Assembly (NCBI GenBank): GCA_964016885.1
Contig: OZ024743.1
Coordinates: forward strand, 286,006,001 to 286,070,000
Direction: 5' to 3'
DNA length: 64,000 bases
Origin: Eledone cirrhosa
Taxonomy: Eukaryota
The position numbers and the translations under genes were made by a program. Shown here in pieces: positions 18,457 to 62,271 of this stretch (its first letter is position 1; every line of letters starts with the position of its first letter). Below the pieces are notes generated by a model that was not told where the DNA came from, searched no databases, and saw only the letters and a list, made by a program, of their open reading frames with translations.

Positions 18457-18999
18457 ATGCAAAAGCAAAGTATCAAGGTTTACAAAGCATCTTCTGGTAA
18501 TAAAATTGCGAGTGGTGAATGTAAAAGAAAAGCTATAACTCTTGAAGAAAAGCTAGATGTTATACAGCGTTTTGAACGTAATGAAAGAACATGTGAAATT
18601 GTTCGTGCAACCGGAATAAAGGAGTCTACTTTACGCACCATTAGAGACAATGCTGAAAAGATTAAAGCCAGCTACATTGCTGGAACAAGCCTTAGTGCTT
18701 GCAAATCAGTGAGATCGCGACCAAGGGAACTTGAGAAGATGGAGCGGCTTCTATGTATGTGGCTAGAAGATCAAACGGAAAAGCTATCAGGAACTAGCTT
18801 TCTTGCTATAAAAGAGAAAGCTTTATCAATTTATGAAGACCTGAAGAAGAAAGCTGAAAATCCGGCAATCGTACCCGCCTTTAGTGCTAGTAGTGGCTGG
18901 TTTGTTGGTTTTAAGAATCGTTATACTTTTTATAATGTAAAGTTTTGTAGTGAATCTAATAATGCAGACGATGAACGGGCTTTAACATTTCACTCCAAG
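18457..18999 (+). CDS. BTB gene A exon 1: CENP-B/Tigger-type DNA-binding region (HTH_psq plus HTH_Tnp_Tc5), transposase-derived, no DDE domain
   Basis: ATG at 18457; KRKAITLEEKLDVI...GIKESTLRTI, then MERLLCMWLEDQ...IKEKALSIY...FSASSGWFVGFKNRY. Donor AAG|GTAGAG at 19000 (phase 0). Confidence 0.85.
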
Positions 19000-19466
19000 G
19001 TAGAGTAGCACTTTCTTTCATTATGAGATGTAAATTAAACATTTTTCATAAGCCATATTATACTTTCATTTTTACGCAAGACCGATATTACATTCAGACA
19101 TACAAGTCTTGTTTTATAAATCAAATTTCACTGCCATAGATGCGTATGTTTTTGATATTGTTAATATATATATATATATATGGGTTTGTTACGAAATTTT
19201 ATTTCTAGCAGATTGATAGCACTTGAAATATTTCGACAAGTTTTCCAGCATTGTGTATTTCTCTTTATTTTTTCCGATTCTTACCTCGATTATGCGGATG
19301 TGTGAGTGTAATAGACGTTTTCTTTTATGTGAATTATCTAGACACACCACATCGTAAAACAAAGAGAAATAACTCATGCTGGAAAAGTTGTCAAAAAATT
19401 AAGGGGCGCGTGAAGATAATTCCTTAGATTGATATCGAAAGTAAAGTAACGTTTTTTTCTTTTTAG

Positions 19467-19903
19467 CCTCTAACACACCAACAGCGTTCCTCTTTGGCTA
19501 TATCTGACTTGACACAGCCGACAGAGTTCAATGCATCTGACCAGTTGAAAGTTAATTCTAACAACGATATACAAAAGACTACCAAACCCTCCAATATGAA
19601 TGATGTGCATCTTTCTAGTCGTTCCATTATTGATCTTGAACAAACAGGGAGATCTTTTGGGGCGAAACCTCGCATGAAACGGTTACCAAAATTAAAACGG
19701 CAATTTAGATCCGGAGCTAAAGATTTATCACTAAACAGAGCGAATTTATCTCAGAGACCATCCAATCATATTAGATCTCACCAGCGGTGGCTGAAAGAGT
19801 CAACAGGTCGCTCTGTTGGAGAGCAGCACTTTGACTTAGTTTTAAATAAAAACTCCGTAGAATACAATTCAAAAGCACCGAAAAGTAACAGCAATTCCAT
19901 ATC
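19467..19903 (+). CDS. BTB gene A exon 2 (basic, Ser/Asn-rich linker)
   Basis: Acceptor ttttttctttttAG (phase 0), open frame PLTHQQRSSLAISD...NSNSI, donor TC|GTAAGT (phase 2). Confidence 0.75.
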
Positions 19904-20102
19904 GTAAGTATCTTAAATACATTCCTGTCCTTTTAATGCTGATTTGCAAAAGAAATCTACTTTTCATTTTATTTGTATACCATGATAATAAATTGAAGTA
20001 TTGTTTTTCATAATCTTAATGTGTAAAATTTCAATTTTAATGCATTTAGTATTTTATATTTGAAAATATTCTGATTTCTTTAACAATTCATTTTATTTAA
20101 AG

Positions 20103-20283
20103 ACATTCTCTGTCTGATGAAATAATAGTTCTTCCACAATCAACCATACCCTCTGTTCAGAAGGAGAAACGTACTCTAGTGGTTCCAAATCACCAAGTGG
20201 CAGTGATGTCCAACCTATTTTCCATGTGGAAAGTTGGGCGTTTGTGTGATTCATATATTAGTAATGGTACCACAAATATAATG
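20103..20283 (+). CDS. BTB gene A exon 3 (N-terminal part of BTB domain)
   Basis: Phase-2 acceptor tttaaAG; HSLSDEII...VPNHQVAVMSNLFSMWKVGRLCDSYISNGTTNIM; donor GTATGT. Homologous to 48011-48188 and 60224-60401. Confidence 0.88.
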
Positions 20284-21290
20284 GTATGTATGTTATGATT
20301 ATTTATGCCTTTTACCCAATATAAAATATGAATAAGTCATTAATATCATAAAATGTATATTTTATTTATTCAGAAGGCATTTTTTTATATATGAGATTAT
20401 AGCAATGCAAATTAAACGTTAAATCTAAAAATAATAAAGGTATTGAAATGTTACTTTAGAAGTGTTTAATTAGTTGTATATATTTTTATTAATATATCCC
20501 CTTTTTCAATGGTGTTAAGAGAACGTCAGAGTGATGGGGTTATTGTGCATCCCTTATGTTGATATTCCAAATTATGAGGAGGAATTAAAGGGCCATGTGA
20601 TGGAGTAATTTGAGGCTTTTATTTGTGTTCACAGGCCGTCAGTGAGAAGTGACATGTAAAGGAATTGGATCAGGTATAATGATGTGACGCACCAATTCTG
20701 GGGTATTTTACAGGAAAAATATCTTAAGCAATAATTCAATATCTTTGTTAGTGTTATTTTTTTAAATTAATGTTCTATTTGTATTACTATAGCCTTCTAT
20801 ATATTAAAAAAATGTTGTCTACATATTCCTTAATGCTTCAAGCAAGCTACAACACTCTTCTATTATTTACTCAATTATATTGGTGCAATAAAATGAGTTG
20901 TTGTAAATTTGTCAATATGTCAATACTCTGAATGTAAAAAGAATTGAGTCAGTGTAATAATTATATGTTGACTGAAAGATCAGCAGTTCATATCCTGCCC
21001 ACTGCTTCTTAACTTTCAATATGGCACAATTAAGCTATGTGTTATCTGGGGATATAATCTCTATCATAGGCAAGAGAGGCTATTGCATAATTGATAAATT
21101 TTTTGTTAGCAAAACCAGCAGAAGCATTCCTATAAAACGAGAGAAATATCTTTTGGGCATATCAAAGCTAAATTATGTTGCTGCATACTTCACCTTTTAC
21201 ATGGGATGTTACTCAGCAAGATAACATACACAACTATTTATTTTGAAAAATCCAACTGAAATTAGATATAGTCAATAATCATCAGCAACC

Positions 21291-21480
21291 TACGAGGGTT
21301 GGTTGAAAAGTTCATACGAAGGAGTGATGCTAGAGCTGTGAAATCTTGTGTGCATTAATTTCAGTTCTTATTAATAACTGCATTGTTTCTTTCCAGGGAA
21401 TCTGTTGAAAAATAAACCTCACTTGGTCATTCCATGAGAGTAGCTTGGTCAACCTATGGATATTTCAGTTGACCCTCGTA
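21291..21480. mobile_element. mariner-type MITE in intron 3 of gene A
   Basis: TIRs tacgagggttggttgaaaagttcata / tatggatatttcagttgaccctcgta. A related inverted copy lies at ~27190-27385. Confidence 0.75.
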
Positions 21481-21628
21481 GTAAAACATAGACTCCATAT
21501 GTTCTTCACCTAGCCCATATTTTGATAGAATCTAGTGATATGTCAGTAATCAATAATCTTAACAAACATATGTTCAATATATAAAGTGTATTTTGCCATA
21601 TTTATCCCAGATATATTTTATATTTCAG

Positions 21629-22681
21629 GTTCATAAAATGGTTTTGGGAGCTGTATGTCCAAAAGTACTGCCCATCCTTTATAACACCTCAAGCAGTTTA
21701 TTTCCTAAAGTGACATTTCCATCATCAGTCAGTAAAGAAGCTCTATTAGCATTTGCAGAGTACATGTACAGTGGTGTGTTAGATCTGAATGAAGATATTC
21801 TTGTCCAACTGAAGACTATTGGTGAAAGATTAGATATGAAAGATTTTGAAGAACTTTGTAGTAATGAAATAAACAAAGCCAAGGCAAAAGATATTTTGTC
21901 AGCTGTGGTGGAACCGTTGTTGGCAGAACCTTGTTCTTTATCAGGACTGTTCTCTCCCAGAACACAAGGAGATTCTAATGAGGTTCAAAACTCAATGTTA
22001 ATGAAAATACTTGGAAATATTTACAGCAATAATAACATGCAATCTGATGTTGGTGTTAATATTGCATCAACATCCAGTCCATCTTCTTCTGATGTAAGGT
22101 CTACAGAAAATATGACTACAGATCAGATTGTTGATATCAAAACTGAAATGGAACCAGAGATAGAGCCTACAACAAATCAGAACTCTCTACAGTTAAAAAT
22201 AGAACCATGTAGTCCCAATGAAAATCAATATAATATCCAAGAAGAATTATTCATGGATATTGGTAACATTACTTCCAATAATAATCTTCATCTCACACCT
22301 GCTTCTGGAAATCTCAATAAAGACAATGATTTAACAGTTACTTATTCAAATAATCAGTATAGAAATGATATAAATATGGATTCCAGTGATATCATCAATA
22401 TATCCGATATCCATCGATCTGAAGTGACTTGTTTATCACAACATACAGAAGACTGTGATAAAGAGACAGAAAATCAGAAAGAATTACAGTTAATTTCAGT
22501 AACATCTGCAACAGGCAATATAAGTGAAGACAGTCTCAGCAATAATTCTGATTTGATAGAGATCTCCAGTACCATGTGCACAAATACAGACCCACTTCAA
22601 ACATCAAATTCTAGACCATACCCTGTTAGCCTTTTTTCTGTGAATGGCAGTAAAATTCCAACAACATTACCAGATAGTTGA
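21629..22681 (+). CDS. BTB gene A exon 4 (rest of BTB/POZ domain plus acidic/Ser/Asn-rich tail, stop TGA)
   Basis: Acceptor tatttcAG; VHKMVLGAVCP...VSKEALLAFAEYMYSGVLDLNEDILVQLKTIGERLDMKDFEELC is the BTB core. 1053-nt open frame. Confidence 0.9.
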   Translation, partial: VHKMVLGAVCPKVLPILYNTSSSLFPKVTFPSSVSKEALLAFAEYMYSGVLDLNEDILVQLKTIGERLDMKDFEELCSNEINKAKAKDILSAVVEPLLAEPCSLSGLFSPRTQGDSNEVQNSMLMKILGNIYSNNNMQSDVGVNIASTSSPSSSDVRSTENMTTDQIVDIKTEMEPEIEPTTNQNSLQLKIEPCSPNENQYNIQEELFMDIGNITSNNNLHLTPASGNLNKDNDLTVTYSNNQYRNDINMDSSDIINISDIHRSEVTCLSQHTEDCDKETENQKELQLISVTSATGNISEDSLSNNSDLIEISSTMCTNTDPLQTSNSRPYPVSLFSVNGSKIPTTLPDS

Positions 22682-22909
22682 ACATTTTTCTTCGATCACT
22701 TCCTGATATAATAGGTTTGTGTTTTATTTTCCTACAGCATTCTTAACAATTTATCTTTATTGTAGTATTAAATGTTCCTTTTATATAAAAGGAAAAAAGT
22801 TTAACCTCGTCATCTCATAAACTGTTGGAGACTGTTTTATACCTTGGCTAACAGTAATGGAAATGCTAAAAAAAATAATACTAATATGTATATATGTATT
22901 AGCTTTGTT

Positions 22910-23300
22910 CTGTTCATACTTTACTTATTATTATTTTTTTCTATTTCTCACACGTTTGGAGAGTATGTTTACTTCTCCAAAACATTGCCCCCCCCCCCCC
23001 CCCCATACATTCTCACTGCAAATATAAACTGTGGTTGATCTGTAATGTAAAATTTTACAATATCTCTCCTTCTTCTTAGTCCATTTGGTCATTTTGTGCA
23101 TATAGATTGTTCTAGATTTAACTTTTCTCTCACCTTCTTAGTCCATTTGGTCATTTTTGTTCGTAAAGATTGTCCTAGAATTAACTTTTCTCTCGGAATT
23201 TTCTGCTGTTCATGCTTTACTTCTTATTATTTTTTCTATTTCTCACAAGTTTGGAAAGTATGCTTATTTCTCCAAAAGTTACCCATTTCCCTCTTTCCCA
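22910..23300 (+). repeat. Local tandem duplications downstream of the gene A stop
   Basis: ~80-bp unit at 22912-22990 is repeated at 23210-23290; ~60-bp unit 'cttcttagtccatttggtcatttt...aacttttctctc' occurs twice within 23075-23195. Confidence 0.65.
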
Positions 23301-23439
23301 CCCCCACTCACCACCATAGCTATTTGGTCCAATCAAAACTCAGTTTATAGTATGGTTTCTAACACAAGTCTCTATCACAAAGCCACTACTCCTTAAGCTT
23401 AGACCTGGTTGTTTTGGTATGATAAATGGACTACAGAGA

Positions 23440-26400
23440 TGTAGAGTCTGAGCACTCACAATGACAATGACAAAGATAAATTCACCTACCATCTCAGGAC
23501 GAGCATGCAAGCACTTCTCTTTATTTCATGGAAGACCAAGACCAACGTAATTCCATCTCCCACACACTCACCCCTGTGCCCCCATCCCATCCCTTCCTCC
23601 CTCCCAGTGAACTCCAAAACTTCAGAGTTGGTACCATGAATGTAGGCACATTGAAAAGTCGCTCAAATGAGGTAGAGATGTTTGAACGTAAAGAAGTTGA
23701 TGTTTGTTGTGTTCAAGATACCAGGTGGAGGGGTGGGTCTGCTAGTCTCATTGTGAGCAAAAAATGATGCTATAAACTTTGCTGGATGGGATAACGGGCT
23801 GGGTGGAGTAGGAATTATGTTAGCAGAAAAATGGGTAGATAAGGCAATTGCCGTAAATAGAGTGAATGACAATAATGAAAATAAGACTAGTTCTAAATAG
23901 AACAACTGTGTCAATAACATCTGCTTATGCACCCCAATCTGGTCTACCAGACGTTATATAAGACAGGTTCTATGAGTCGCTAATGCTCACTACCTCCCAA
24001 ATGACCAACAGTGACTACATAATTATTGTTGGCGACCTTAATGGTCATGTTGGACAACGTTATAATGGATATGATGGAATCCATGGAGGTTATTGGTTTG
24101 GTACTAGAAATGATGAAGGCTCCAGGATCCTGGAATTCTGTGATGCTAATAACCTAACTATGCTAATAAAGAAATATATCTGTAATACAAGCTTCAAAAA
24201 ATGAGACAATCACTTGATCACTTATAGATCAAGGGAGCACACCAGCCGGATAGATTTTATCTTTACTAGAAGACGAGACAGAATGTCTGTTGTAAACACT
24301 AAGTCCCTGCCTCGTGAAGAATGCACCTCCCAACATAGCCTAATAGTTAGTGACCTCATAGTTAAGACTAGATGTACTCAACGACAGGACTATCTTGAGG
24401 AAAAGAATATGGAAGTTGAAGGACCCCACAGCCAATAACAAATTTAAAAGCATATTACTTGATGCTTTTGACAGTAATGGAAGAGCAATTAGAGACGTAC
24501 AATATAGAGGAACAGTGGGAATTCCTGAAAGATAACCTGCTGAAGGTGGTGAAATCTGTGGCTGGAGCATACCTTTAGGCAGGAGGTGAGTAATATGGTG
24601 GTGGAACAATAAAGTGGCAGAGACAAGCAGGCTTGGAAAGAATTACGGGATGGAGGTAGTAGAGAACACTATCAAGTAGCTTGGAGAGAAGCTATGCGAC
24701 AAGTGTACTTTGCAAGAAGGGAAGCAGAGGATAGAAAGTTCAAGCATATTCTGCAATGGGAGGACCAAAAACGTGAGGTGTTCAGGATTGCGAGACAATG
24801 TATCAAGGAAAATTGTGATATTGTCGGGGAGAAGTGTGTCCAGAATGATGATGGTATACTTGCCCTCACTGATACTGATAAGAAGGTAGCTTGGAAGTGT
24901 CACTAAAAGAGACTACTGAATAAGAAGAATAAATGGGAAAAAGATAGTCTGCCCTAAATCGATCCAATAGAGGGACCGGCTGTACAAGTTAATAGTAGTA
25001 TAATAAGTAAGGCAATCAAAGATATGAAGACAGGCAAGGCAGCTGGGCCTTCGGAGATAGTTGCTGGAATGGTGGGACAGACATAATATGGTCACCCGGA
25101 TAGTAAACCAAGTAATACAGAATGGGGTCATACCAAATGACTGGTGTAGCAGCATCATCGTTAACTGCTACAAGGGTAAAGGAGATGCCCTAGATAGAGG
25201 AAACTATAGAAGCATTAAGTTAGTTGACCAGGTCATGAAGGTCACAGAAAGAGTTATTGCACAACTGATTAGAGACCAAATTGATCTAGATGAAATGCAG
25301 TTTGGGTTTGTGCTAGGTAAAAGTACCATGGACGCTCTCTTCTTTGTACGGCAACTACAGGAGAAGTATCTAGCTAAAAGTAAACCTCTCTACTTAGCTT
25401 TTGTTGCTTTGGAGAAAACCTTTGACAGAGCCCCCCCCCCCCCCTCCATTATCTGGTGGGCTCTTAGAAAACTAGGAGTAGAGCTATACAAGCCATGTAT
25501 AGAGGAACAGTCAGCAAGGTTAGAATTAACAATGAATATAGTGAAGAATTTAGCGTAAAAGTGGGTGTTCACCAAGGTTCCATCCTTAGCCCCTCCTGTT
25601 TATTATTGCCCTACAGGCTATAACAGAAGGGTTTAAGACTGGCTGCCCATGGGAACTTCTATATGCAGATGATCTAACTCTCATATCTGAATATATGGCT
25701 GAACTAGAGAAGAAATTCCAAACATGGAAGCATGGCCTAGAATCAAAAAGCCTTAAAGTTAACTTGTCTAAGACTAAAGTCCTAGTGTGTAGAAAGGAAA
25801 ATAGGGCACAGGTGCTCTCTGGGAAATAGCCATGCTCAGTGTGTAGGAAAGGAGTAGGTAGAAATTCCATGCTATGCCTCAAATGTAAACTATGGCTACA
25901 TAAAAGATGTAGTGAGATCACAGGCAAGCTATCTAAGAATGTAGATTTTATATGTGGCCGATGCTCAGGTGCAGTAAGTAGCAAGTGCCCACTGGATACT
26001 AGCTCCTTCAACTGCCCAGATGGTTCTATAGAAATAGTAGACACTTTCTGTTACCTGGATGACAAAATCAGCAGTAGAGAAGGGTGTTCTGAAAGTACAG
26101 TAGCTAGAGTTAGAATGGGATGGAAAAAGTTCAGAGAGCTTTTGGCCACAAGGGGTTTCTCTCTAAAGATGAAAGGCTGATTGTATGATGCTTGTATACA
26201 AACAGCAATGTTACATGGCAGTGAGACCTGGGCACTGTGAACAGAGGACCTGGAAAAATTGGAAAGAAATGAAGCATGCATGCTCCGTTGAATGTGTAAT
26301 AGTAATATACACGAACAGCAAAACATAAACAAACTAAGACAGAAATTAGGAATAAGAGGGATCAGATGCAGTTTACTTGAGAGGAGATTACGTTGGTATG

Positions 26401-26997
26401 GTCATGTGATGGATACAGCTGTATAAAAAAGTGCAGGGCGATCAAAATTGATGGAAGTTACGGAGTAGGTAGACCCAGAAAAACCTGCGACGACATGGTA
26501 AAATCTGAACTTGCGCACTTACACTTCTCTAAGACAATGTCACTGGATTGAGATCTTTGGCGCTATGCTATAATACAGAAGAACCACCTTCCCTTACGTA
26601 CAAACTTAAACCTACGGTCAGTAGGCACCTCTTACCCCAATATACATCCACCCCACACTCTCTACTCCATCCTCCCACTTCTGCCCACACCACCCTTTCT
26701 CTGTAAAGTTATGTTGGTACCACAGAACATCCAGTCCACACTGTAAAGTGGTTGTGTAGGTGTCACGACAAAAAACACCCAGTCCACACTGTAAAGTGGT
26801 CATGTAGGAGACATGGTAAAAAGGTTCCCAGTCCACACTGTAAATGTTGGCGTTAGGAAGGGCATCCAGCCAGATACAGTTCTCTATGAGCGAGATACGG
26901 TCACCCGACCAATCTTGCCTCAAGTGGGACAAACCTGTCTAACCCATGCTAGGGTGGAAGATCGATGTTAAACAATGATGATGATGATGATGATGAT
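23440..26997 (+). mobile_element. Near full-length but inactivated RTE-clade LINE (APE, RT, PHD-like finger) with (GAT)n tail
   Basis: RVGTMNVGTLKSRS, VCCVQDTRW, IIVGDLNGHVG, SRIDFIF, NYRSIKL, EMQFGF, VHQGSILSPLLF, LYADDL and a Cys/His finger, then FCYL...ARVRMGWKKF. Many stops and frameshifts. Confidence 0.92.
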
Positions 26998-28089: not shown

Positions 28090-28122
<33 letters not shown>

Positions 28123-29871
28123 TGGTACGTGGAGGTGTAAGTGTGGAGCTAGGTGCTCTATCATGTTAAAAATTGTCTGTTATTGATTGGTGATTGTGTT
28201 TTGTCTATAATTAGTGCTTCTTTAATTCTAAGATTGCCGAGGTTTCTTTCTTTAGCTTCTATTTTAACTATTATGTTTTTGTCAGTGATTTTGCATTTCA
28301 CTAGGTGTTTCTTAAATGAGGAAGCGTTAGTGTTGCGGTGTTCTTTTATTCTAATGTGAAGTGGTCTGGTGGTGCTACCTATGTAGAAGTTGCTGCATTT
28401 GTCGCACTCTAATCTGTACATGACGTAAGCCTGGTGGCATAGGTCTGTGTCGTCGATGGGGCAGTTGGCTAGCCTGCAGCGGTGATCATGTCTGGTGGAG
28501 TGTCTTTTGGTTAGCTGTCCGTGTAGAGAAGGTCCTGAGTGGGCTAGCTGGACATCTAGTCCCTCTCATCTGATAGCTCTGCGGATGGCTGTCGTTGTTT
28601 CATCACTGAAGTGTGGGAGCTTCAGGAAGCAGGTGTTAGTGCCTCAGGTGTGGTGTCCTCTGTTGTTTCTGGCATGGTTTGCGGTGGACGTCGGGTATCC
28701 GTTCAGTTTAAGTACTTCCAGGAAATGTGTGGTGTCTGTGTCTCGGTCTCTTGCGTCGGTGCATTTGTTCCGGATACGTGTTAGTTCGTTCCTTATGTAT
28801 CAGAACTTAGCGCTGACTGGGAGGGCTGATCTGAAATGTACGAACAGGTCCCTGCTGGCGGCTTTTTTATAGAAGCAGGTGTGGATGTCGCCTTCCTCTG
28901 TTACCCTGAGTTGGAAGTCCAATAAGGATAGGGATCCACGGTTATTGGGGTGTTCCATGTTGAACTTTATATTGGCGTCCATGCTGGAGAATGTCATGTA
29001 TATTTTATCCGCTTCTTCACGGGATGATGTAAGAATGGGTATGTCATCTACATATCGGGTGAAGCAGGTATAGGAATGGCAGGTGTTGAGGGCTCGGCAT
29101 TCCAGCTGGTTCATATAATTGATGGCCAGCAGGCCCGATAGGCTGGATCCTATGGTAATCCTGTTGTCTGTCTGTATGTGTGATGGTGGAAGGTGAAGTA
29201 CGTGTTGTCCACTGTGAAAGACAAAAGTTGGTGTATGTCCGTTGGATGGAGGCCATAGTAGTGGACGTCCTCTGCGACCACGAAGTCCGTCAATAAATCG
29301 ACAGCTGGATGAGCGGGGACTGTAGTGTAGAGGGAGACAATGTCGAGGCTAAAGGTGTATCTATATAGTTTAAGTTGTTCTGGCTGGAGTTGGTGTAGTC
29401 TACGTATGACCTTGTCGGAGCTACTGACATGCCCGGGAAAGGTGGAGAGTAGAGACTTGATGACCTGGGAGAGGAGCCAGGAGATTTTGTATAGGAGCCC
29501 TTCTATGCTAGAGACGATGGGTCTTATTTGTGTCTTAGTACTATTCTTGTGGATCTTGATGAGGTGATAAGTCTGCTATTTCTAGTGGTGTAATCAAACT
29601 TAAATTTATTTGGGAGTTGTCTTCTACTACAGATGTCGAACCAGATGGAGTTGGCCTGTTTTTCGATCTGTCAGCATGACTTGGCAAGCTAATTAGAACA
29701 CTGGATTAACCCCTTTACTTCCCTCCGAAGAAGAGATATTATCTATTATCTCGAAAATTAAGGATATTCAAATAAATTTAAGGTAAAAGACTAATGGTCA
29801 GCAATATCTTTTGCATTTGTAATTATATTCTATATCCATACCTGCATTGTTCTGGCCTTCTAACTCCAAAC
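27641..29871 (-). mobile_element. Penelope-like element (RT plus GIY-YIG endonuclease), 5'-truncated, with inverted pLTRs
   Basis: Minus-strand RT 'RYVDDIPIL...LSLLDF...YKK' (28800-29114) and GIY-YIG 'YRLECDKCSNFYIGSTTRPLHIRIKEH' (28161-28421). ~200-bp terminal repeats at 27641-27837 and 29668-29871 are in inverted orientation. Confidence 0.9.
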
Positions 29872-29897
29872 ATATATATATATATATATATATATAT

Positions 29898-30128: not shown

Positions 30129-30172
<44 letters not shown>

Positions 30173-30186
30173 ATATATATATATAT

Positions 30187-35219: not shown

Positions 35220-37010
35220 GGAATGTATTCTCAGCAAGTTAAAAATTTAGATGTATTTTGTTTGAGGATTATGACAATAAGGAAGAACAGATAGCAACAT
35301 TCAACATAGAGGAGTATTGAGAGATCCCAAAAATAAATTTACTGAAGGTAACAAATGAGAAGAGAGTGACTTGGTGGTGAATGAGACAATTAAGGCCAAG
35401 AGACAGACATGGAAGAATGGATGAAGCAGGGTGCACTACCTGAAAGCTCAGAGAGAAGGTAGGTGACAAGTATACTTTGTAAGGAGTAAAGCAGAAAATA
35501 AAAAATGTAAGCATGTTTTGCAACATGAGGACCAAAGATGCAAGGTAGTTTGATAGAGAAAATTGTGATGTTGCTGGGGAAAAGTGTGTATAAGATGATA
35601 ATGGCGCACTTGCCCTCACCGATGCTGAGAAAAAAGTAGCAAGGAAGTGTCATTATGAAAGATTATTGAATGAGGAAAATGCATGGGAGGAAGATAGTCT
35701 ACTCCAAGTAGACACAACAGAGAGTCCAGCTGTACAACTCAGCAGCAGTGTAGTAAGCCAACAATTAAGGATATGAGGATGAGGAAAGCATAGGGATAGT
35801 TGCTGAGATACTGAAAGCATCTGGGACGGTCGGTCACATCTTAACCATATGTATTGCAAACCAAGTAATACAAAATGGTGTCATACCCAATGATTGGTGT
35901 AGCAGCATCATCGTCAACTACTACAAGGGCAAAGGAGATGCTCTAGACAAAGGAAACTATATAGGCATCATGAAGGTCACAGAAAGAGTTATAGCACAGT
36001 TGATTAAGGACCAAGTTAACCTAGATGAGATGCAGTTTGGATTTGTGCCAAGTAAAAGTAGCACTGATGTCCTCTTCCTTGTGAGGCAACTACAGGAAAA
36101 GTACCTAGCTAAAAGTAAACTGTTCTACTTGGTATTTGTTGACCTGGAGAAAGCTTTTGACAGTTTCTTTGCTATAATCTGGTGAGCTCTAAGAAAACTA
36201 GGAGTAGATGAGTGACTTGTGAAGGCAGTACAAGCCATGTATAGAGGAGCAGTGAGTAAGGTTAGGATTAATAATGGCTACAGCAAAGAATTTAGTGTGC
36301 AGGTAGGAGTCCATCAGAGCTCTGTTCTTAGCCCCCCTCCTGTTTATTGTCATACTGCAGGCTATAACAGAGGAGTTTAAAACTGGCTGCCCATGGGAAC
36401 TCCTGTATGCAGGTAACCTTTATAGATGAATATATGCAGAATTCCAACAGTGAGAACGGGATGGAAAAAGTTTAGGGAGCTACTGCTGCTGCTAGTTACT
36501 GTGGGGCTGCCGCAAGATAGAGGGGGGTGTAGAGCTGCCGGAAGTTGGGGGACACCTGACTGGAAGCTGGAGGATGGGAGCGACTTGAGGGACCAGGCAG
36601 TCAACAGAGGCCTCTTAGCTATACGCCCTGCGAGGTGACGGTTGTGTGAAGACAGATGCGAGCGGAAAGTACCCCCACATGGACCAGAGAGATGCAAGGG
36701 AAGTCCGAATGCCTCTGGCTACAGCTACAAAAGGCTTTTCCCTCAAAATGAAAGGTAGATTGTACGAACAGAACTGCTGCATGGAAGTGAGACCTGTGCA
36801 ATATGTGCAGAGGATTAGAAAGAAATGAAGCTTACATGCTCCAACTATTGTGTAATGCATGAATGACAAAAGAATCAGTGAACTGAGAGAGAAACTAGGC
36901 ACAAGAGGGATCAAATGCAGTGTACAGGAGAGGAGATTGTAGTGGTTTGGACTTGTGATGAGTATGGAGGTTGACAGATGTATAAAAAGGGACAGGGCAC
37001 TCAAAGTCAA
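35220..37010 (+). mobile_element. Decayed RTE LINE (tether-RT-C-terminus) interrupted by a GC-rich insert
   Basis: ORF 35970-36185 (EMQFGF...LVFVDLEKAFD) and RTGWKKFRELL. An unrelated GC-rich segment lies at ~36495-36720. Confidence 0.8.
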
Positions 37011-37454: not shown

Positions 37455-40275
37455 TATCATCATCATCATCATCATTTTACATCCGCCTTTCCCTGCTTGC
37501 AAGGGTGGGACGAGAACTGATTCTGGCTTGATTTCTACAGTTGGATGCCCTTCCTAACACCAACCTCATTTACAGTGAGTGCTGGGTCCTCTTTTGCCGT
37601 GGCAACTCCACGACCACTTTGCAGAAATATGAAGACGTCGCATCTCAGAGTTGCAACACTTAATGTTGGCACTCTCAGAGGTAGATCTGCTGAAATAGTC
37701 AATCTGGCTTATGTGCTCGCCAGATTTGTAGGTTATTAGGTGGTTGGCAGGTTTTTGGAAGTTAGTGTTGCAAATAGTCAGTGTACTTGCATCACAAAAT
37801 TCAAGAAGTCTCACTCTTTCTTCATTTCTTGAGCCGTAACTTCTTACTAGTTAGGCAGCAGGACAGGCAGATAGTGTCTAATACCAAGGCATACCCTGGG
37901 GAAGAATGTACCCCACAGCATAGGTTAGTTGTTAGTGATATCTCAGTAAGCAAGAGATGGAATGAGACATACAGGAAGGTGTGGAGAAGAAAGGTCTGGA
38001 AGCTAAAAGACCTTTCACTAAAATACAAATTTAGGAAAGCCCTTCAAGATGTGTATGACGAAAAAGAAGACGATTTAGAGACGTATGACAGAAAATAACT
38101 GGAATTTCTAACGTGACAACTTACTGCAGGCTACTGATGAAACTTGTGGCTGGAGCAGAGCTCCAACCAGACAGAGAGTGACCTGGTGGTGGAACAGCAC
38201 AGTAGATAAGGCCATTAGAGACAAAAGACTAGCATGGAAGGCTTGGAAAAAGGGTGGGAGTAGGGAAGGATATACAGCCACTAAGAGAAAAGCTAGACGT
38301 CAGGTGTACTTAGCACGCAGGGAGGCTGAGAGTAGGAGGTTTGCCAATGTTCTGCAACGGGAAGATCAGAGGCGTGCAGTGTTCCACATTGCAAGGCAGT
38401 GTGTTAATGCAAATCAGGATGTTGTTGGAGATAAATGTATCCGGAATGATGCCAGTGTACTTAGTGTCACAAATGATCAGAAAAAGGAGGCCTGGAAATG
38501 TCATTATGAGAGACTGATGAATGTGGAGAACGAATGGGAGAGAGAGAAATTGCCCTCAGTAAATCAGACAGAGGGACTAGCTATTGAGATTGACGAATAT
38601 AGGGTCCAAGAGGTGAATAAAGAAATGAAAAATGGTAAGACTGCTGGACCGTCGGGGATAGTTGCTGAGATGCTGAAGGCATCAGGGGATGTAGGCACTA
38701 AACTGGTTGCACGCATCATCAATCAGGTTATATATGGTGGAGTCATACCCAAAGACTGGTGTAGCAGTATTTTCATAAATTGCGACAAAGGTAAAGGGGA
38801 TGGTCTGGAGAGGAGCAATTATAGGGGTATAAAACTGATGGATCAGGTTATGAAAGTGGCAGAAAGGATTTTAGCGCAACTGATTAGAGAAAGGGTCAAA
38901 CTAGATGAGATGCAGTTTGGTTTTGTGCCTGGGAAGAGTACAACAGATGCCCTCTTCTTGGTGAGACAATTACAAGAGAGTTTCTTAGAGAAAAATAAGC
39001 CACTATACTTAGCCTTTGTTGACCTAGAGAAGGCCTTTGATAGGGTACCCCGATCTGTCATCTGGTGGTCTCTAAGGAAACTAGGTGTTGAGGAATGGCT
39101 TGTGAGGACAGTGCAAACTTTGTACAGAGGTGCTGTCAGTAAAGTCAGGGTAGGAATGGAGTTTAGTGAGGAATTCCAGATACAAGTAGGAGTACAAGGT
39201 TCGGTCCTCAGCCCGCTCTTGTTCATTATAGTCCTCCAAGCCATAACAGAGGAATTTAAGACTGGCTGTCCATGGGAACTTCTCTATGCTGACGATCTGG
39301 TTCTTATAGCAGAATCAGTAGAGGAGCTAGAGAATAAATTCTGGCTATGGAAACAGCAGTTGGAAGCAAGAGGACTGAGAGTGAACCTAGCTAAGACAAA
39401 AGTGTTGATGAGTAGAAAAGAGGACAAAACCCTGATTCCGTCAGGGAAATGGCCATGTTCGATATGCAGAAAAGGAACTGGCATAAATTCTATAAAATGC
39501 ACACAATGCAGATCCTGGATACACAAGAGATGTAGCGGGATAGCAGGCAAACTAACAGGTAGGGAAATATGTATGCAGTAGATGTACAGGGAAATTAGAC
39601 AGTAGAAGTCGCATTGATAGACACATTTTTCAAATGCAGGCGGGTGCTATAGAAGTGGTGGATAGCTTCCGGTACCTAGGAGATCAGATTAGCATGGGAA
39701 GGGGGGTGTTCCGAGGCCATAGTATCTAGAATAAGGATGGGTTGGAAGAAGTTTAGGGAGCTGCTTCCTCTGCTGACGAAGAAGGGTTTCTCTCTGCATA
39801 CGAAAGGCCGGTTATATGATGCCTGTGTGAGGAGCGCGATGCTGCATGGTAGTGAGACATGGGCAGCAACTGCAGAGGATATGTGACGGCTGGAGAGAAA
39901 TGAGGCAAGCATGCTCCGTTGGATGTGCAGTGTCAATGTGCGTGAACGACCCAGCATGAATGTGTTGAGAAAGAAACTGTGTCTGAGAGGGATAGAATGT
40001 AGTGTGCGAGAGAGGAGACTGAGGTGGTATGGACATGTGATTCGCATGGAGGATGACCGATGGGTGAAGAAGTGCCAGGAAATGCCAGTTGAAGGAAGAC
40101 GTGGTAGAGGTAGACCACAAAAAACATGGGCGGAGGTGGTGAGAACAGACCTCAAATCGCTGAAGCTCACGGTGGAGATGACGAAGGACCGTGACAAGTG
40201 GAGAGATGCTGTGCTGAATAAGACCCATCCCACCCTTGCAAGCAGGGAAGAGCGGACGTAAAATGATGATGATGA
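37455..40275 (+). mobile_element. Least-decayed RTE-clade LINE copy (467-aa RT ORF), rearranged 5' end
   Basis: ORF 38178-39581 with NYRGIKL, MQFGF, FVDLEKAFDRV, QGSVLSPLLF, LYADDL and a CxxC finger. C-terminal RLRWYGHV...GRGRPQKTW and a (GAT)n tail. Inverted APE segment at 37694-37840. Confidence 0.93.
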
Positions 40276-43409: not shown

Positions 43410-43842
43410 ATGGGGAGGTTCAAGAAGTACCGTAATGAAATAGAAAGGCAAGCAGCCAGAAAACAACGTGAACGAGAAAGACGTGCTACTGAAACAAATG
43501 AAGAAAGAGAAGAAAGATTGAGAAAGCTGTCTATAAATGCACAAAAAAGAAGAGCTGAGGAATCAACAGAAGAAAGAAAACAGAGGCTTAGAAGATTGTC
43601 TCAGAATGAATTGAAGAGAAGGGCTAAAGAAACAAATGAAGAAAGAGATGAAAGACTTAAGAAACTCTCTCAATATGCAAAGAACAGGCGTGCTGCAGGG
43701 CCAAACAATCATAATACTCAACTAGGTAAAAAAATGGATCGAGGCCAGAATCAAAATGCTAATGGTTACATTAAAGTCAACCTTTTAAAGTATTATGATG
43801 TCCATGAAGACCATCATCAGGAGCAGATGCAACACAATCCTG
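43410..43842 (+). CDS. BTB gene B exon 1: STPR-like 23-aa repeat DNA-binding domain
   Basis: ATG at 43410; three exact 23-aa repeats ETNEEREERLRKLSINAQKRRAE / ESTEERKQRLRRLSQNELKRRAK / ETNEERDERLKKLSQYAKNRRAA (43491-43697). Donor CCTG|GTATCT (phase 1). Confidence 0.8.
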
Positions 43843-44395: not shown

Positions 44396-44537
44396 GAAAC
44401 AAATTAAGTCACTTAAAGAGAACATCAAAATGGAAAAGGAATGTCTCTAAAACATTACAGATAGAAGAGATAATCCCAGGCACAAACTCTAGACAGAAGA
44501 ATTCAAGACTATCACAAACCAGAAGTAGATTAACATC
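44396..44537 (+). CDS. BTB gene B exon 2 (basic linker)
   Basis: Acceptor ttttctcttAG (phase 1), open frame GNKLSHLKRTSKWKR...NSRLSQTRSRLT, donor TC|GTAAGT (phase 2). Joins exons 1 and 3 in frame. Confidence 0.72.
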
Positions 44538-48010: not shown

Positions 48011-48188
48011 CCATGCCCTGTCTGATGAAATCTCTGTTGTTCCACAATCGACTATACCTGAAGTTCATGAGAAACATATTTTAGTAGTTCCCAATCACCA
48101 AACAGCAGTAATGTCAAATCTGTTTTCTCTTTGGAAGACACGACGCCTGTGTGACTCGTACATTAGTAATGGTACTACGAATGTAATG
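48011..48188 (+). CDS. BTB gene B exon 3 (N-terminal part of BTB domain)
   Basis: Phase-2 acceptor tttaaAG; HALSDEISV...VPNHQTAVMSNLFSLWKTRRLCDSYISNGTTNVM; donor GTATGT. Confidence 0.88.
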
Positions 48189-49615: not shown

Positions 49616-50623
49616 GTTCATAAAATGGTTTTAGGAGCTGTATGTCCAAAGTTATTGCCTGCTCTTCACTACTCATCAAAAGGTTCATTTCCCAAAGTGG
49701 TATTTCCAAGTTCGGTCAGTAGGGAAGGACTTTTAGCATTTATAGAATACATGTACACTGGTGTGTTAGATCTGAATGAAGATATTCTTGTCCAACTGAA
49801 GACTATTGGTGAAAAACTAGAAATGAAAGATTTTGAAGAACTTTGTAGTAAAGAACTGAAGAAAGCTAAGGCTAAAAATATTTTATCAACTGTGGTGGAA
49901 CCTTTGTTGGCAGAACCTTGTTCTTTATCAGGACTGTTCCCTTCCAAAAATCAAGTCGATACTAATGAGATTCAGAATTCTACATTAATGAAGTTACTTA
50001 GAAATATTTGCAATAATACTAGCATACAAACTGATGTTGCTATTAATGTTGCATCAACATCTAGATCCTCTCCGTCTTGTGCTTCTGATGTAAGATCTGC
50101 AGAAAATATGGCTACAAGCCAGATTCTTGATATCAAGACTGAAATGGAACCAGAGACAGAGCCTGCACCAAACCAGAATTCTCTAGAGTTAAATAGTCCT
50201 GAAGAAGAAATGTGCATGGGTATTAACAATGTTCAGTTAAAGCCTGCTGCCACTGATGGAAATATTAATAAAGACAATGGGTTAACAGTTACATATTCAA
50301 ATAACCAGTATAAAAATGATATAAACATGGATTCCAGTGATATGAATGTATCTGATATCAATCAATCTGAAGAGACTTGTTTATCACAGCATACAGAAAA
50401 CTGCGATAAAGAAACAGATAATCAGAAAGAATTACAGTTAATTTCAGTAACATCTGCAACAGGCAATATAAGTGAAGACAGTTTCGGCAATAATTCTGAT
50501 GTAATGGAGATCTCCAGTACCATGTGCACAAATACAGACCCACCTCAAACATCAAATCCTCAACCATTCCCTGTTAGTTTATTTTCTGTGAATGATGATG
50601 AAGATGCAACTCTATTAATATAG
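49616..50623 (+). CDS. BTB gene B exon 4 (BTB/POZ core plus tail, stop TAG)
   Basis: Acceptor gttttcAG; VHKMVLGAVCP...EYMYTGVLDLNEDILVQLKTIGEKLEMKDFEELC. 1008-nt open frame, paralogous to 21629-22681. Confidence 0.9.
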   Translation, partial: VHKMVLGAVCPKLLPALHYSSKGSFPKVVFPSSVSREGLLAFIEYMYTGVLDLNEDILVQLKTIGEKLEMKDFEELCSKELKKAKAKNILSTVVEPLLAEPCSLSGLFPSKNQVDTNEIQNSTLMKLLRNICNNTSIQTDVAINVASTSRSSPSCASDVRSAENMATSQILDIKTEMEPETEPAPNQNSLELNSPEEEMCMGINNVQLKPAATDGNINKDNGLTVTYSNNQYKNDINMDSSDMNVSDINQSEETCLSQHTENCDKETDNQKELQLISVTSATGNISEDSFGNNSDVMEISSTMCTNTDPPQTSNPQPFPVSLFSVNDDEDATLLI

Positions 50624-54864: not shown

Positions 54865-55321
54865 ATGGCAAGGCCAAAAAAATACAAGACTGAAGCAGAA
54901 AGATTAGCAGTCATGCGACAACGTCAAAGAATTAAAAGAGCTAACGAAACACCTTTAGAAAGAGATCGAAGATTGCGGATATTATCTATGAATGAACTGA
55001 AACGACGTCGAAGCGAAACAGCTGAAGAGAGAAATGAGAGACTTAAAAGGTTGTCTGTAAATGCACGTAAGAGACGAGCTAAACAAATGATAAACCAGAG
55101 AAAGGAGAAGCTTAGAAAATTGTCTGGGAGTGAAATGAAAAAACGAGCCAGCGAAACGGATCAGAAAAGAAACGAGCGTGCATCAGAACCAACCTGTCGT
55201 ACTCAACTGGGTATCGGGACAAGAGGCCGAAAGCGGAATTCTAATGGTATTAAAATGGACTTGACTAACTGTTTGGATGACCACAAAAATCATTTCCTGG
55301 AGCGGCTGCAACACGACCCTG
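54865..55321 (+). CDS. BTB gene C exon 1: STPR-like 23-aa repeat DNA-binding domain
   Basis: ATG at 54865; MARPKKYKTEAER then ETPLERDRRLRILSMNELKRRRS / ETAEERNERLKRLSVNARKRRAK / QMINQRKEKLRKLSGSEMKKRAS. Donor CCTG|GTATCT (phase 1) at the same position as in gene B. Confidence 0.8.
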
Positions 55322-58080: not shown

Positions 58081-59270
58081 ATCCATGTATGTTTCATTAT
58101 CTATCTGCTTTTATGTGTGTGTGTGTGTAATTATTTTAGCCATTTCAGTCATTTGACTGCAGGTATGCTGGGGTTCTGCTTTGATTTAGTCAATCATATC
58201 AACACTAATATAGCTTAGTTCTTATCTTAGTGATAACTATTTTTGTTGAACTACTAAGTTACAGACATGGACAGAAACTCATATACACATACAAACACAC
58301 ACACACATATATATAGATGCAGAGGTGGTGAATTGGCAGAGTTGATAGAATGTTTCCTGTATTTTGGTTTCTGAATCAATGTTTGATTCAAATCCCACTG
58401 ATGACCAGGGCTAATCACTTGATCACAGTTGATTATACTGCAGACAACTGATGATAATGATTTATATTATATATATGATAAAGTTATATCTGAAACTGTA
58501 AATATGCCAAATATATGTATTTCCCTGTAAATTGAAAATATGATAAATAACATTAATCAATTTTTAATCTAGTCAGGCTCTCATTAGAAGGTATATATAT
58601 CATCTAAACAATCACAAGGAAATATATAAACGAGTACTTATACACCCACTTAATGTATCCGAAAATGAATGTACTAATTTGCATATTATTAGCATTCATG
58701 CTAATAGTTAATTAAGATATATATTAAGCTGTGCACTAAGCAGCCAAAATATACGATATCTGTGAATATATACAAGAGGTAACTAAGACTACATAAATGT
58801 GTATATTAATTTACACATTTTTAATATATAGATATATAAACACATCAAATATATGTATTTCCTTGTACATTATAAAAATGATCAATACCTTTAATTAATT
58901 TTCTAACTTTGGAATGAAGAATTGGGATAAGTATATGGCTGCAGGGATTTAGTATAGATGGTAATGACATGAGTTAGATTTATGTGGGATTGGTGCAGTT
59001 GTAGAGGAGATATAGAGCCGACACAGTATATTAGCTATTTGGTAGTTGTAGAATGAAGTATTGCGTATGATGATAATGATAAACAAGGTAGATGGTGATG
59101 TGGAACAGCAATAATGATGATATTGATGAATGTTGGACTTAAAAGACACTACCTAGATATCTTTGACACTTAAAAAGAAAAAAAATATACCTTGAAATGG
59201 GAAATATGAACTATACAAATATAGAATTGTTAATATTTTAAAATACTCATTTTTTATTGTTTTCATTCAG

Positions 59271-59523
59271 AAAATTCTTTACTTGGATGTAACTCTCATT
59301 TTATAGAGAAGTTTGAAGTTCTTGTTGAAAAATCGGAACTGAATTCCATCCCATCTTCCCAACTCCATTGTGGTGAAAAAAGAAAATTGAAAAAAGTCTC
59401 TGGAAATTGTGTAAATCAGAAACAGAAAAACAAAACCGGAACACACAGAAACCAATCAACCTCAGTCAACAGTTCTAATGAAGTGAATTCAAGATTATAC
59501 CAAAATAGTACCAATACAGTGTT
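59271..59523 (+). CDS. BTB gene C exon 2 (linker with KRKLKK basic motif)
   Basis: Acceptor ttttcattcAG (phase 1), 253-nt open frame ENSLLGCNSHF...GEKRKLKKVSG...NSRLYQNSTNTV, donor TT|GTGAGT (phase 2). Joins exons 1 and 3 in frame. Confidence 0.72.
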
Positions 59524-59590
59524 GTGAGTGTTTTAAACATTTCTTTTAATACTATCCTTTATTTTGCAAATATAGCTATTTAGTTGGAGT

Positions 59591-59864
59591 CAGAGGCATA
59601 ACTAGGGAAATTAGCGCCTATGGCAAGTAGTGAAATTGCACCTCTGCCCAGCATTGTATATTTACCTATGGGCCTAATAATTTATATAAATGGTTTAATG
59701 ATTCAGCCACCATAGTGTTCTTGCCCATGATAATCAGAGACAGATCATACATCTGAAGAAGTTTCTTTTTTAACTTTAATAGAAAGTGCTCCTAGTCCAA
59801 GTGGTACCCCCTTCATGTGGCAAACATGTCGTGCCATGCTTGCCATACCCTAGTTACACCTCTG
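59591..59864. mobile_element. hAT-like MITE in intron 2 of gene C
   Basis: TIRs cagaggcataactaggg / ccctagttacacctctg; degenerate 8-bp TSD gttggagt / gttgaagc. Confidence 0.7.
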
Positions 59865-60223
59865 GTTGAAGCAGATGTCCATATAGCTGAATGTCCTTCC
59901 TACAGCTAGGCACCCAACCTAGAGGTTCAAGCAAACTACAAATATACAATATTATCTTAGATTTATTAATGTGAGTGTTTGTGTACACTCTAAAATAGTT
60001 AATATTACTACAAACTGTTAATAGCATATTACACCCCAAACCTCAGTATTACATAGAGTATTTCATACATGTAGTAGTTTTACATGTGTATAGTTCTGCA
60101 AGAGACTATCTGATGCCCTTCTATGTAGAAAAAATAAAAGCTAGATTTATTACCCAGCCTGAAGTCTACTCTAATTGCATTGTTGACTAACTATTGATAT
60201 GTTTTATGTTTTTATATTTCAAG

Positions 60224-60401
60224 CCATTCTGTTTCCAGTGAAAGCTTACTTCACCCACAATCAACTGTACCTAATGCTAAGGAGAAACGCATTTTAGTGA
60301 TTCCAAATCACCAAGTGGCAATGATGTCCAATCTATTTTCTATGTGGAAAGCTGAACGTTTGTGTGACTCATACATTAGTAATGGTACTACGAATATATT
60401 G
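60224..60401 (+). CDS. BTB gene C exon 3 (N-terminal part of BTB domain)
   Basis: Phase-2 acceptor tttcaAG; HSVSSES...IPNHQVAMMSNLFSMWKAERLCDSYISNGTTNIL; donor GTATGT. Confidence 0.88.
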
Positions 60402-60489
60402 GTATGTTATAACCTTCATTATGATGTATAATATAGAATCAGTTGACAGCTTCTGTTACCTGAGTAACCAAATTAGTCATGTTAGATGC

Positions 60490-61080
60490 TCATCTTGGAG
60501 TCATGACAAAAGAACCTAGTCCTCTCTGTAAGGTATCATGACAAAAGAGCACTTAGGCCTCCTTGCAGGGTGGTCATGCTGGTGGCATGACAAATAAGCA
60601 CCCAGTTCACCCTGTAAAGTGGTTATGTTGGTGGCATCACAGAAGGTGCCTGATCTGCCCCTTGGAATGGTCATGTTGGTGAAACGACAAATGCACCCAA
60701 CCTAACCTTGGTAACATGACAAAAAGCACTTAGCCCAGTCTTGGTGACATGACAAAAAGCACCCAGTCCACACTGTAAAGTGGTTGTGTTGGTGATATGA
60801 CAAAAAGTATCCTGTCCACATTGTAAAGTTGTTGTTTTGGTGCCACAACAAAAAGTGCCCAGCCCACACTGTAAATTGGTTGTGTCAGTATCATGACAAA
60901 AAGTGCCAACTACACTGTAAAGTGGTCATTTCGATGTCCCAATAAAAGGCATCCAGTAAATGGGGCTGACGTTAGGAAGGGCATCCAACCATAGAACTAA
61001 GCCAGAAACAATTCTGTATGAGAAAGACATGGTCATCTGATCCGACTTGTCTTACAAAGGAATAACTTGTCTAACCCATG
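60490..61080 (+). repeat. Degenerate ~45-bp minisatellite expanded inside an RTE-tail SINE
   Basis: About ten variants of 'catgacaaaaagcacccagtccacactgtaaagtggttgtgttggtg', followed by the 'aggaagggcatcc...ctaacccatg' tail. Confidence 0.8.
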
Positions 61081-61248
61081 TTACAAATATAAATATATAT
61101 AGTTAATTGGGTGAAAGCATATTTAATGTATGTAATAAAGTTAAAGTAAAATTAAATACACTGTGAGAGCAACATACAATCATTATTATTTTTGAACAAT
61201 TATTATTTTTGCCACATTTATTCCAGATGTATTTTATCATGTTTTCAG

Positions 61249-62271
61249 GTTCATAAAATAGTTTTAGGAGCTGTATGTCCAAAATTAATGCCTACACTTC
61301 ATTCATCAAATGATTCATTTCCCAAAGTGGTGCTTCCATCTTCAGTCAGTAAAGATGCTCTATTAGCATTTGCAGAGTACATGTACAGTGGTGTGTTAGA
61401 TCTGAATGAAGATATTCTTGTCCAACTGAAGACTATTGGTGAAAAATTAGATATGAAAGATTTTGAACAACTTTGTATTAATGAATTGAACAAAGCTAGA
61501 GCAAAAAATATTTTGTCAGCTGTGGTGGAACCTTTGTTGGCAGAACCTTGTTCTTTATCAGGATTATTCTCTCCCAGAACACAAGGGGATTCTAATGAGG
61601 TTCAAAACTCAATATTAATGAAAATATTTGGAAATATTTACAGCAATAATAATAACAACAATAATAATAACATGCAAGCAGATGTTGCTGTTAGCATTGC
61701 ATCTAGATCCAGTCCATCTTCTGCTTCTGATGTAAGGTTTGCAGAAAATATGTTTGTGGACCAGATTAACATCAAGACTGAAGTGGAACCAGAAATAGAG
61801 CCCTCTATTCCTGATGAAAATCAAAATTGTATCCAAGAAGAATTATTCTTGGATATTGGTAATATTACTTCCAATAATGACCTTCATCTCACACCTGCTT
61901 CCACTGATGGAAATCTCAATAAAGACAATGATTTAACAGTTACTTCAAATAACCAGTATAGAGATAATATAGAAATGGATTCCTGTGATATCATCAATAT
62001 ATCTAATATCCATCGATCTGAAGAGACTTGTTTATCACAACATACAGAAAACTGTGATAAAGAGACAGAAAATCAGAAAGAATTACAGTTAATTTCAGTA
62101 ACATCTGCAACAGGCAATATAAGTGAAGACAGTCTCAGCAATAATTCTGATGTAATAGAGATCTCCAGTACCATGTGCACAAATACAGACCCACCTCAAA
62201 CATCAAATTCTCTACCATACCCTGTTAGCTTATTTTCAGTGAATGACGGTGGATATACAACTATAGAGTAA
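61249..62271 (+). CDS. BTB gene C exon 4 (BTB/POZ core plus tail, stop TAA)
   Basis: Acceptor gttttcAG; VHKIVLGAVCP...EYMYSGVLDLNEDILVQLKTIGEKLDMKDFEQLC. 1023-nt open frame with a poly-Asn run. Confidence 0.9.
   Translation, partial: VHKIVLGAVCPKLMPTLHSSNDSFPKVVLPSSVSKDALLAFAEYMYSGVLDLNEDILVQLKTIGEKLDMKDFEQLCINELNKARAKNILSAVVEPLLAEPCSLSGLFSPRTQGDSNEVQNSILMKIFGNIYSNNNNNNNNNMQADVAVSIASRSSPSSASDVRFAENMFVDQINIKTEVEPEIEPSIPDENQNCIQEELFLDIGNITSNNDLHLTPASTDGNLNKDNDLTVTSNNQYRDNIEMDSCDIINISNIHRSEETCLSQHTENCDKETENQKELQLISVTSATGNISEDSLSNNSDVIEISSTMCTNTDPPQTSNSLPYPVSLFSVNDGGYTTIE

Follow-up and report, generated by a model that had tools for sequence, protein, structure and literature searches.

Variable DNA-binding 5' exons appear to share a constant 3' BTB cassette in a coleoid cephalopod gene family

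How does one cluster of genes come to place unrelated, transposon-type DNA-binding domains in front of the same BTB domain, and is each domain tied to its own gene? Here we examined a window of 64,000 nucleotides from the 3.0 Gb genome of Eledone cirrhosa (GCA_964016885.1, contig OZ024743.1; G000:C4:286006001-286070000), which carries three plus-strand genes, A, B and C. The original prediction described a modular, lineage-restricted family in which each gene joins a single captured first exon to a shared BTB cassette. Much of this holds, and N-terminal transposon-type domains do sit on a constant BTB part, but the swap appears to lie mainly among alternative 5' exons of one gene rather than between fixed paralogs. 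We consider it probable that A, B and C belong to a coleoid-cephalopod family of BTB transcription factors that combine a variable 5' DNA-binding exon with a constant 3' BTB cassette. Intact, conserved, same-strand exons from many DNA-binding families sit upstream of the cassettes, and annotated Octopus isoforms keep a constant C-terminus behind differing N-terminal domains, with junctions that fall on GT donors in this genome.

Domain swapping occurs within one gene as well as between paralogs, as gene A illustrates. Its CENP-B start, proposed as its only one, was recovered, but a second 5' module had been overlooked. This module comprises a THAP exon upstream of the window and an exon carrying the end of THAP and a CG-1-like domain, and it gives gene A an open frame of 878 aa. 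In both Octopus sinensis and O. bimaculoides, RefSeq lists two isoforms of the A ortholog, X1 with THAP and the CG-1-like domain and X2 with CENP-B, which have about 570 C-terminal residues in common. The THAP exon matches Octopus at 73/73 aa and a cuttlefish-type protein at 60/73, and the CG-1-like exon matches O. sinensis X1 at 234/248 aa; the CG-1 domain match itself is weak (E 3e-4, below the Pfam cut-off; atlas feature score 0.90). The CENP-B exon is identical to isoform X2 at 155/181 aa and ends at an identical junction, the CENP-B structure 1hlv matches its ortholog with E 9e-7, and the BTB of A is 98% identical to that of Octopus.

Sequencing-run contigs were compared with positions 4001-24000, and hence with gene A only, for 4 of 24 listed runs; none of the runs is labelled RNA on record, and repeat-derived joints crowd the junction table. 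In the own-species-like run X22 (record 17), a single contig passes from 4346-5092 directly into 19467-19903 with 0 differences, skipping the CENP-B exon. Record 24 of run X4, from a relative, makes the same 5092 to 19467 join and continues into exon 3, and contigs from three relatives begin at 21628, beside the start of A exon 4. The THAP exon is predicted by orthology to join 4347, and the X22 contig includes 28 bases upstream of that point. The X4 contig has 3010 bases ahead of the CG-1-like exon, far more than the length of the THAP exon, possibly representing another 5' module or a long untranslated region in that species. Between the two 5' modules of A, on the sense strand, lies an open reading frame (ORF) with a mariner Mos1-type helix-turn-helix (12336-12743 +, E 1e-8), which is probably a decayed repeat copy, though it is sited where a new capture could begin.

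The gene models of the original prediction were largely borne out. Each of the nine proposed introns runs from GT to AG with AT-rich/pyrimidine-rich acceptors, and the joined frames are open over 737 aa in A (stop ends at 22681), 586 aa in B (50623) and 636 aa in C (62271). For C, the proposed exon 2 acceptor at 59271 keeps the frame, but 59307 fits the Octopus models better and gives 624 aa. Exon 3 is homologous across A, B and C (181, 178 and 178 nt, phase 2 to 0, nucleotide identity 74-81%), as is exon 4 (81-85%), which taken alone contains a BTB domain above the Pfam cut-off in all three genes (23-29 bits against 20.5). Pfam also recognised CENP-B_N (E 9e-11) and HTH_Tnp_Tc5 (E 2e-7) in exon 1 of A and STPRs in the first exons of B and C (Table 1), and the reversed order, with BTB behind the variable part, is seen in all window models. 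The BTB cores had been called near-identical but are only 79-80% identical among A, B and C. The cluster also proved larger than the three genes first described, with a gene D downstream and two cassettes upstream, making six cassettes in all.

For paralog pairs compared on single exons, the STPR and BTB parts give dN/dS of 0.11-0.51, with 0.32-0.41 for the STPR repeats, and the tail gives 0.47-0.81. Collinearity with the O. sinensis and O. bimaculoides orthologs extends through the junctions, whose positions agree except at the C exon 2 acceptor. Given this collinearity and dN/dS of 0.11-0.51, the models are not chance assemblies, and by sequence comparison A, B and C are real, conserved genes. 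A pseudogene or repeat artefact is ruled out by the open conserved frames and dN/dS below 1. By exon identity, the ortholog pairs are LOC115209549/LOC106872000 for A, LOC115209332/LOC106872009 for B and LOC115209550/LOC106872012 for D; by elimination, that of C is probably LOC115209617/LOC106872008. Homologs were found in O. sinensis, O. bimaculoides, O. vulgaris, Argonauta and the cuttlefish Acanthosepion pharaonis.

The same layout recurs beyond the window. From 980 ORFs of 60 aa or longer in 464 kb, filtering left 424 on the plus strand, and 345 of these were scanned against Pfam. The first upstream cassette is preceded by six candidate variable exons (CG-1, THAP, three FLYWCH and one Brinker-Tc5) and the second by CENP-B and Brinker-Tc5 exons, the two Brinker-Tc5 exons being near copies of each other. 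Across the genome, a BTB exon search gave 19 matches among 27 candidates. Ten of 18 THAP and four of 18 FLYWCH genome matches lie at most 100 kb upstream of one of these 19 cassettes on the same strand, where 0.006 were expected, and among these 18 + 18 matches, from searches that score the best candidates only, none lies near a cassette on the opposite strand. Eleven more BTB cassettes lie at C4:297.95-298.33 Mb, C4:312.38 Mb and on C7, C10, C11, C21 and C23, several with THAP, FLYWCH or ZSWIM3_N-like exons upstream.

The largest set of variable exons was found at C4:234.67-234.78 Mb, where at least 18 Pfam-positive ORFs precede one cassette: 9 THAP, 4 CENP-B, 3 DUF3504/QRICH1, 1 Psq and 1 zinc finger, three of the 18 being weak or below the curated cut-off. 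The constant exons identify this locus as the ortholog of O. bimaculoides LOC106877732, for which isoform numbers in RefSeq run to X36 (at least 36 annotated). When 15 isoform junctions of this gene were tested, 12 variable exons and 1 adaptor exon ended on a phase-0 GT and 1 on a phase-1 GT, and 1 had no match. Several THAP exons end ahead of what we take to be the last zinc ligand, and a shared exon completes them. Six further variable exons are on the unplaced contig C581, which carries the 5' part of the array and may belong in a 200-N gap at C4:234660713. The array as a whole spans G000:C4:234669374-234841600, and there is a partial duplicate of the constant exons at C4 234796614. A similar exchange is seen in two cuttlefish-type Logan contig proteins, which have 846 C-terminal residues in common and start with THAP in one and ZSWIM3_N in the other; the shared part matches a named cuttlefish protein. 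A genome search found no copy of the ZSWIM3_N exon near gene A and 3 matches elsewhere, one of them 48 kb upstream of another cassette.

The variable domains belong almost wholly to DNA-transposon families. A genome search for STPR gave 176 dispersed matches with 150 of 2172 candidates scored, and the sampled copies head Helitron Rep-helicase ORFs, the Rep-helicase being recognised by eye. CENP-B/Tc5 likewise heads pogo-type transposase ORFs in this genome. STPRs are described as a stable Helitron domain (PMC11417382) and as a DNA-binding domain (PMC4856987, PMC4821344). Exon content turns over between lineages, and one alternative exon present only in Octopus shares 52% identity with a pogo-type ORF found here; many other exons agree with their Octopus counterparts at 85-100% identity. 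The CG-1-like exon is spliced to a host BTB gene in RNA, and junctions and identity are conserved. Elsewhere in the window, decayed copies of one LINE family occupy 24310-26410, 35417-36436 and 37895-40041 (longest ORF 489 aa, with reverse transcriptase and a PHD-like finger), and Penelope-like fragments with GIY-YIG and reverse-transcriptase matches lie at 28161-29575 on the minus strand.

In the mechanism we propose, each variable exon would have its own promoter and be cis-spliced to the cassette. DNA transposons would be the source of these exons, with CENP-B deriving from pogo/Tigger, STPR from Helitron and the rest from elements according to family, in each case by capture of the 5' end. 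Such an end could supply both a start codon and an N-terminal DNA-binding domain, leaving an in-phase donor as the sole further requirement; this would account for the domain order being reversed. In vertebrate host-transposase fusions the host domain usually comes first. The BTB would dimerise, and isoforms could pair different specificities to regulate host genes or organise their chromatin. Genes B, C and D would have arisen by tandem duplication in octopods, each with an STPR exon as its fixed start in this genome, and their cassettes would have exchanged sequence by gene conversion. The BTB cores of B and D have 96% aa identity and dS of 0.036, against dS of 1.0 in exon 3, which points to recent homogenisation by gene conversion; the exon 4 BTB core of B thus appears to have been recently homogenised with that of D.

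The family appears restricted to coleoids. The original prediction would have fallen if these architectures were ancient orthologs described across bilaterians, and instead the named proteins among 65 profile matches are all coleoid cephalopods (48/48). In a midpoint-rooted BTB tree of 54 rows, built without P0143, P0154, P0158, P0161 and P0167 (non-cephalopod proteins whose high scores come from several summed BTB stretches), the family forms a 38-row clade with support of 100/99, in which all named rows are coleoid. The nearest outside group includes oyster-type BTB-first proteins and a few BTB-last proteins. One family member, P0141, combines BTB with both THAP and a complete DDE_3 transposase-type domain in a single protein. 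An origin of the BTB itself as a transposon domain was ruled out by the 19 intron-split cassettes and by its nearest kin being host BTBs. The family BTB has an N-terminal extension, in whose alignment the TTK-type FxLRWN motif is absent, and no BACK, Kelch or MATH domain follows the BTB in the window exons or close homologs. The extension and the absence of BACK favour a dimerising transcription-factor type of BTB, as judged from sequence, over a Cullin3 adaptor.

Several points weigh against this reading. Of the gene A junctions first proposed, the exons on either side of 19903^20103 lie on one X4 contig, whereas 18999^19467, the join of the CENP-B exon, is absent among the contigs listed from the four runs, which is not evidence of absence. 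The CENP-B exon alone appears in run X17, from a relative, at 18480-18891 with 49 differences. The B and C junctions come from gene models, of which some are homology-based transfers, and as the contigs give no transcription starts, the alternative promoters are inferred. Against the four pogo-type ORFs sampled, the CENP-B exon of A reaches only 25-38% identity, and the STPR exons match Helitron ORFs in short stretches only, at about 24-41% identity, which suggests that the captures are old; no cognate element or target site emerged from these comparisons. BTB-last proteins outside the coleoid clade (P0193, P0219 and P0168 from Lymnaea) show that coleoids are not alone in having the reversed order, and the best solved-structure matches of the profile are a mixture of ZBTB, SLX4 and Kelch-type BTBs.

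Other explanations fare worse. Separate paralogs with one fixed captured exon each, diversified by duplication and exon replacement alone, would suit B, C and D, for which the STPR first exon is the only one here: Pfam gave no DNA-binding exon beyond the known ones in 27 window ORFs and 21 downstream ORFs, except the STPR exon of D. The probable Octopus ortholog of C has three annotated starts in two species, STPR and two CENP-B types, and neither CENP-B alternative has a close match in 264 kb here. However, the constant exons of A accept a second, RNA-supported 5' module, two to six DNA-binding exons stand upstream of the neighbouring cassettes and at least 18 upstream of the 234.7 Mb paralog, leaving fixed paralogs quite improbable. 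Slightly less probable again is that A does not use its CENP-B exon, which would be either a domesticated ORF standing alone or a silent intronic remnant; the true A would then be only THAP-CG-1-BTB and CENP-B-BTB an annotation artefact. The sole join listed for X22 skips this exon, and its donor (AAG/GTAGAG) is less consensus-like than that of the CG-1 exon, but two Octopus species retain its frame and phase-0 donor, with 86% identity, and RefSeq makes the same join. The exon is also present in the run X17, where another contig enters 19467 with an upstream AG matching the CENP-B exon end, though this is suggestive only.

A role in transposon defence or as a ubiquitin ligase, with transposase domains guiding BTB to transposon ends or transposases and Cullin3 or silencing being recruited there, would draw on the transposon families of the variable domains, the exon turnover between lineages, including the Octopus-only exon, and the Kelch-type BTBs among the structure matches. 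We consider it unlikely: the many exons highly identical to Octopus would be expected of fixed host targets more than of an arms race, and a ubiquitin ligase sits poorly with a BTB lacking BACK. Trans-splicing of the isoforms, for which mod(mdg4) and lola provide the insect precedent (PMC11426971), is very unlikely indeed. The near-cassette THAP and FLYWCH matches are all upstream on the sense strand, a layout for which cis-splicing suffices and trans-splicing is unnecessary.

Table 1. Exons and cassettes of the BTB gene cluster; positions are those of the window unless a G000:C4 coordinate is given.
Feature	Position	Strand	Basis
Gene A THAP first exon, 220 nt	G000:C4:285990636-285990855, 15 kb upstream of window	+	Orthology
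Gene A alternative 5' module exon 2: THAP end and CG-1-like domain, 746 nt, phase 1 to 0	4347..5092	+	RNA join, orthology
Gene A alternative 5' exon: CENP-B_N and Tc5 double helix-turn-helix (pogo/Tigger type), phase 0 donor	18457..18999	+	Pfam, orthology
Gene A constant linker exon, shared acceptor of both 5' modules	19467..19903	+	
Gene A BTB exon 3, N-terminal BTB part	20103..20283	+	
Gene A exon 4: BTB core, Ser/Asn-rich tail, stop	21629..22681	+	
Gene B first exon: STPR repeats, phase 1	43410..43842	+	Pfam E 5e-23; 113/143 aa identical to O. sinensis LOC115209332
Gene B linker exon	44396..44537	+	Sole candidate passing splice filter between 43842 and 48011; ortholog junctions match
Gene B BTB exon 3	48011..48188	+	Homology, ortholog
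Gene B exon 4 with BTB core	49616..50623	+	
Gene C first exon: STPR repeats, phase 1	54865..55321	+	Pfam E 3e-14; 96-99 of ~152 aa identical to Octopus STPR-BTB proteins
Gene C linker exon	59307..59523 (59271 acceptor also in frame)	+	Ortholog models
Gene C BTB exon 3	60224..60401	+	Homology
Gene C exon 4: BTB core, tail, stop	61249..62271	+	Pfam
Gene D: STPR first exon and BTB cassette, 644-aa open frame, GT-AG introns	G000:C4:286076445-286084567, just downstream of window		
Two upstream cassettes with 6 and 2 candidate variable exons	G000:C4:285922724-285972900		

A variable 5' exon on a constant BTB cassette would make this family a cephalopod counterpart of lola and mod(mdg4), built in the opposite orientation; in insects these two genes are central to neural wiring and chromatin insulation. 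Dozens of DNA-binding specificities would lie under a few loci labelled 'uncharacterized', hidden from standard gene counts. The exons combine deep conservation with gains and losses between octopods, which makes the arrays a tractable record of transposase domains becoming host transcription factors. Promoter choice and heterodimer pairing are directly testable in cephalopod single-cell and long-read data. A bolder version, which we hold only tentatively and think rather doubtful, is that the system arose independently of insects and with opposite polarity, combining promoter choice among dozens of transposon-derived domains, BTB pairing and ongoing capture of transposon 5' ends. If true, cell-type-specific promoter choice could encode cell identity, in neurons for instance.

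The domain pairings are known, while the architecture appears undescribed. Mukherjee and Moroz (2023, PMC10027918) found BTB, which they treated as transposon-derived, in most of the THAP and CENP-B factors of Octopus, and named the classes 'THAP BTB', 'CENPB BTB', 'HTH-PSQ BTB' and 'BTB-FLYWCH'. They describe the same family but count its members as separate factors. Their supplement lists the A ortholog LOC106872000 as THAP BTB and the probable C ortholog LOC106872008 as CENPB BTB, holds many entries under LOC106877732 with one shared constant region, and includes Octopus cDNA entries that start with different 5' sequences. The words 'isoform', 'alternative', 'first exon' and 'promoter' are absent from the main text, and STPR, CG-1 and DUF3504 forms are absent among the 30 BTB places of supplement Table 1. 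The novelty first claimed therefore narrows, with THAP-BTB and CENP-B-BTB pairings already catalogued there and no description of the variable-first-exon design found in the open literature, a scope outside which subscription papers fall, including some cephalopod genome papers. The accessible portions of PMC12111275 and PMC8887127 contain nothing on this design. In RefSeq, the isoforms are visible as 'uncharacterized' proteins.

Among other BTB proteins, ZBTB factors carry C-terminal C2H2 zinc fingers, and Pfam found none in exon 4 of A, B or C. Cullin3 adaptors (KLHL/KBTBD/SPOP) have BACK/3-box and a substrate-binding domain after BTB, which the window genes lack. Captured domains have precedents. 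In KRAB-transposase fusions, transposase DNA-binding domains were captured by alternative splicing onto a host effector (bioRxiv 10.1101/2020.05.07.082677), with one capture per gene, whereas the cephalopod genes keep many as alternatives side by side. KCTD1 isoform b joins a Crypton DUF3504 to BTB, an upstream insertion having given the second isoform (PMC3212892), and ZBTB11 has an integrase zinc domain ahead of BTB (PMC12062965). Both resemble the cephalopod genes in having a transposon-derived domain N-terminal to BTB, but they are single captures in unrelated BTB subfamilies and form no array.

Oyster-type proteins (Magallana gigas 'BCL6/ZBTB16 isoform X11' and relatives) are among the nearest BTBs outside the coleoid clade. 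They have a constant N-terminal BTB and a variable C-terminus (C2H2, BEN, Psq, Ets, DUF3504 or Brinker), a polarity opposite to that of the cephalopod family, as in lola. Within a lola-like mollusc gene, P0177, P0271, P0184-P0189, P0226/P0238 and P0244/P0246 have 550-640 N-terminal residues in common and differ in their C-terminal DNA-binding domains. Clustered protocadherin and UGT1A loci also splice variable first exons to constant exons. Their variable exons are paralogs of one non-DNA-binding domain, whereas the cephalopod exons encode DNA-binding domains. Drosophila mod(mdg4) and lola combine a constant BTB with 20-30 variable DNA-binding exons, FLYWCH among them (PMC11426971), and the cephalopod loci likewise join one constant BTB to many alternative DNA-binding exons. 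In the insect genes, however, the BTB is N-terminal and of the arthropod-only TTK type, and the variable exons are 3' and joined by trans-splicing (PMC11426971). The cephalopod variable exons are instead 5' and belong to at least 8 unrelated families, and the BTB is without the TTK motif. By analogy, the cephalopod family works like lola and mod(mdg4) but is not a member of their group, since both polarity and BTB subtype differ.

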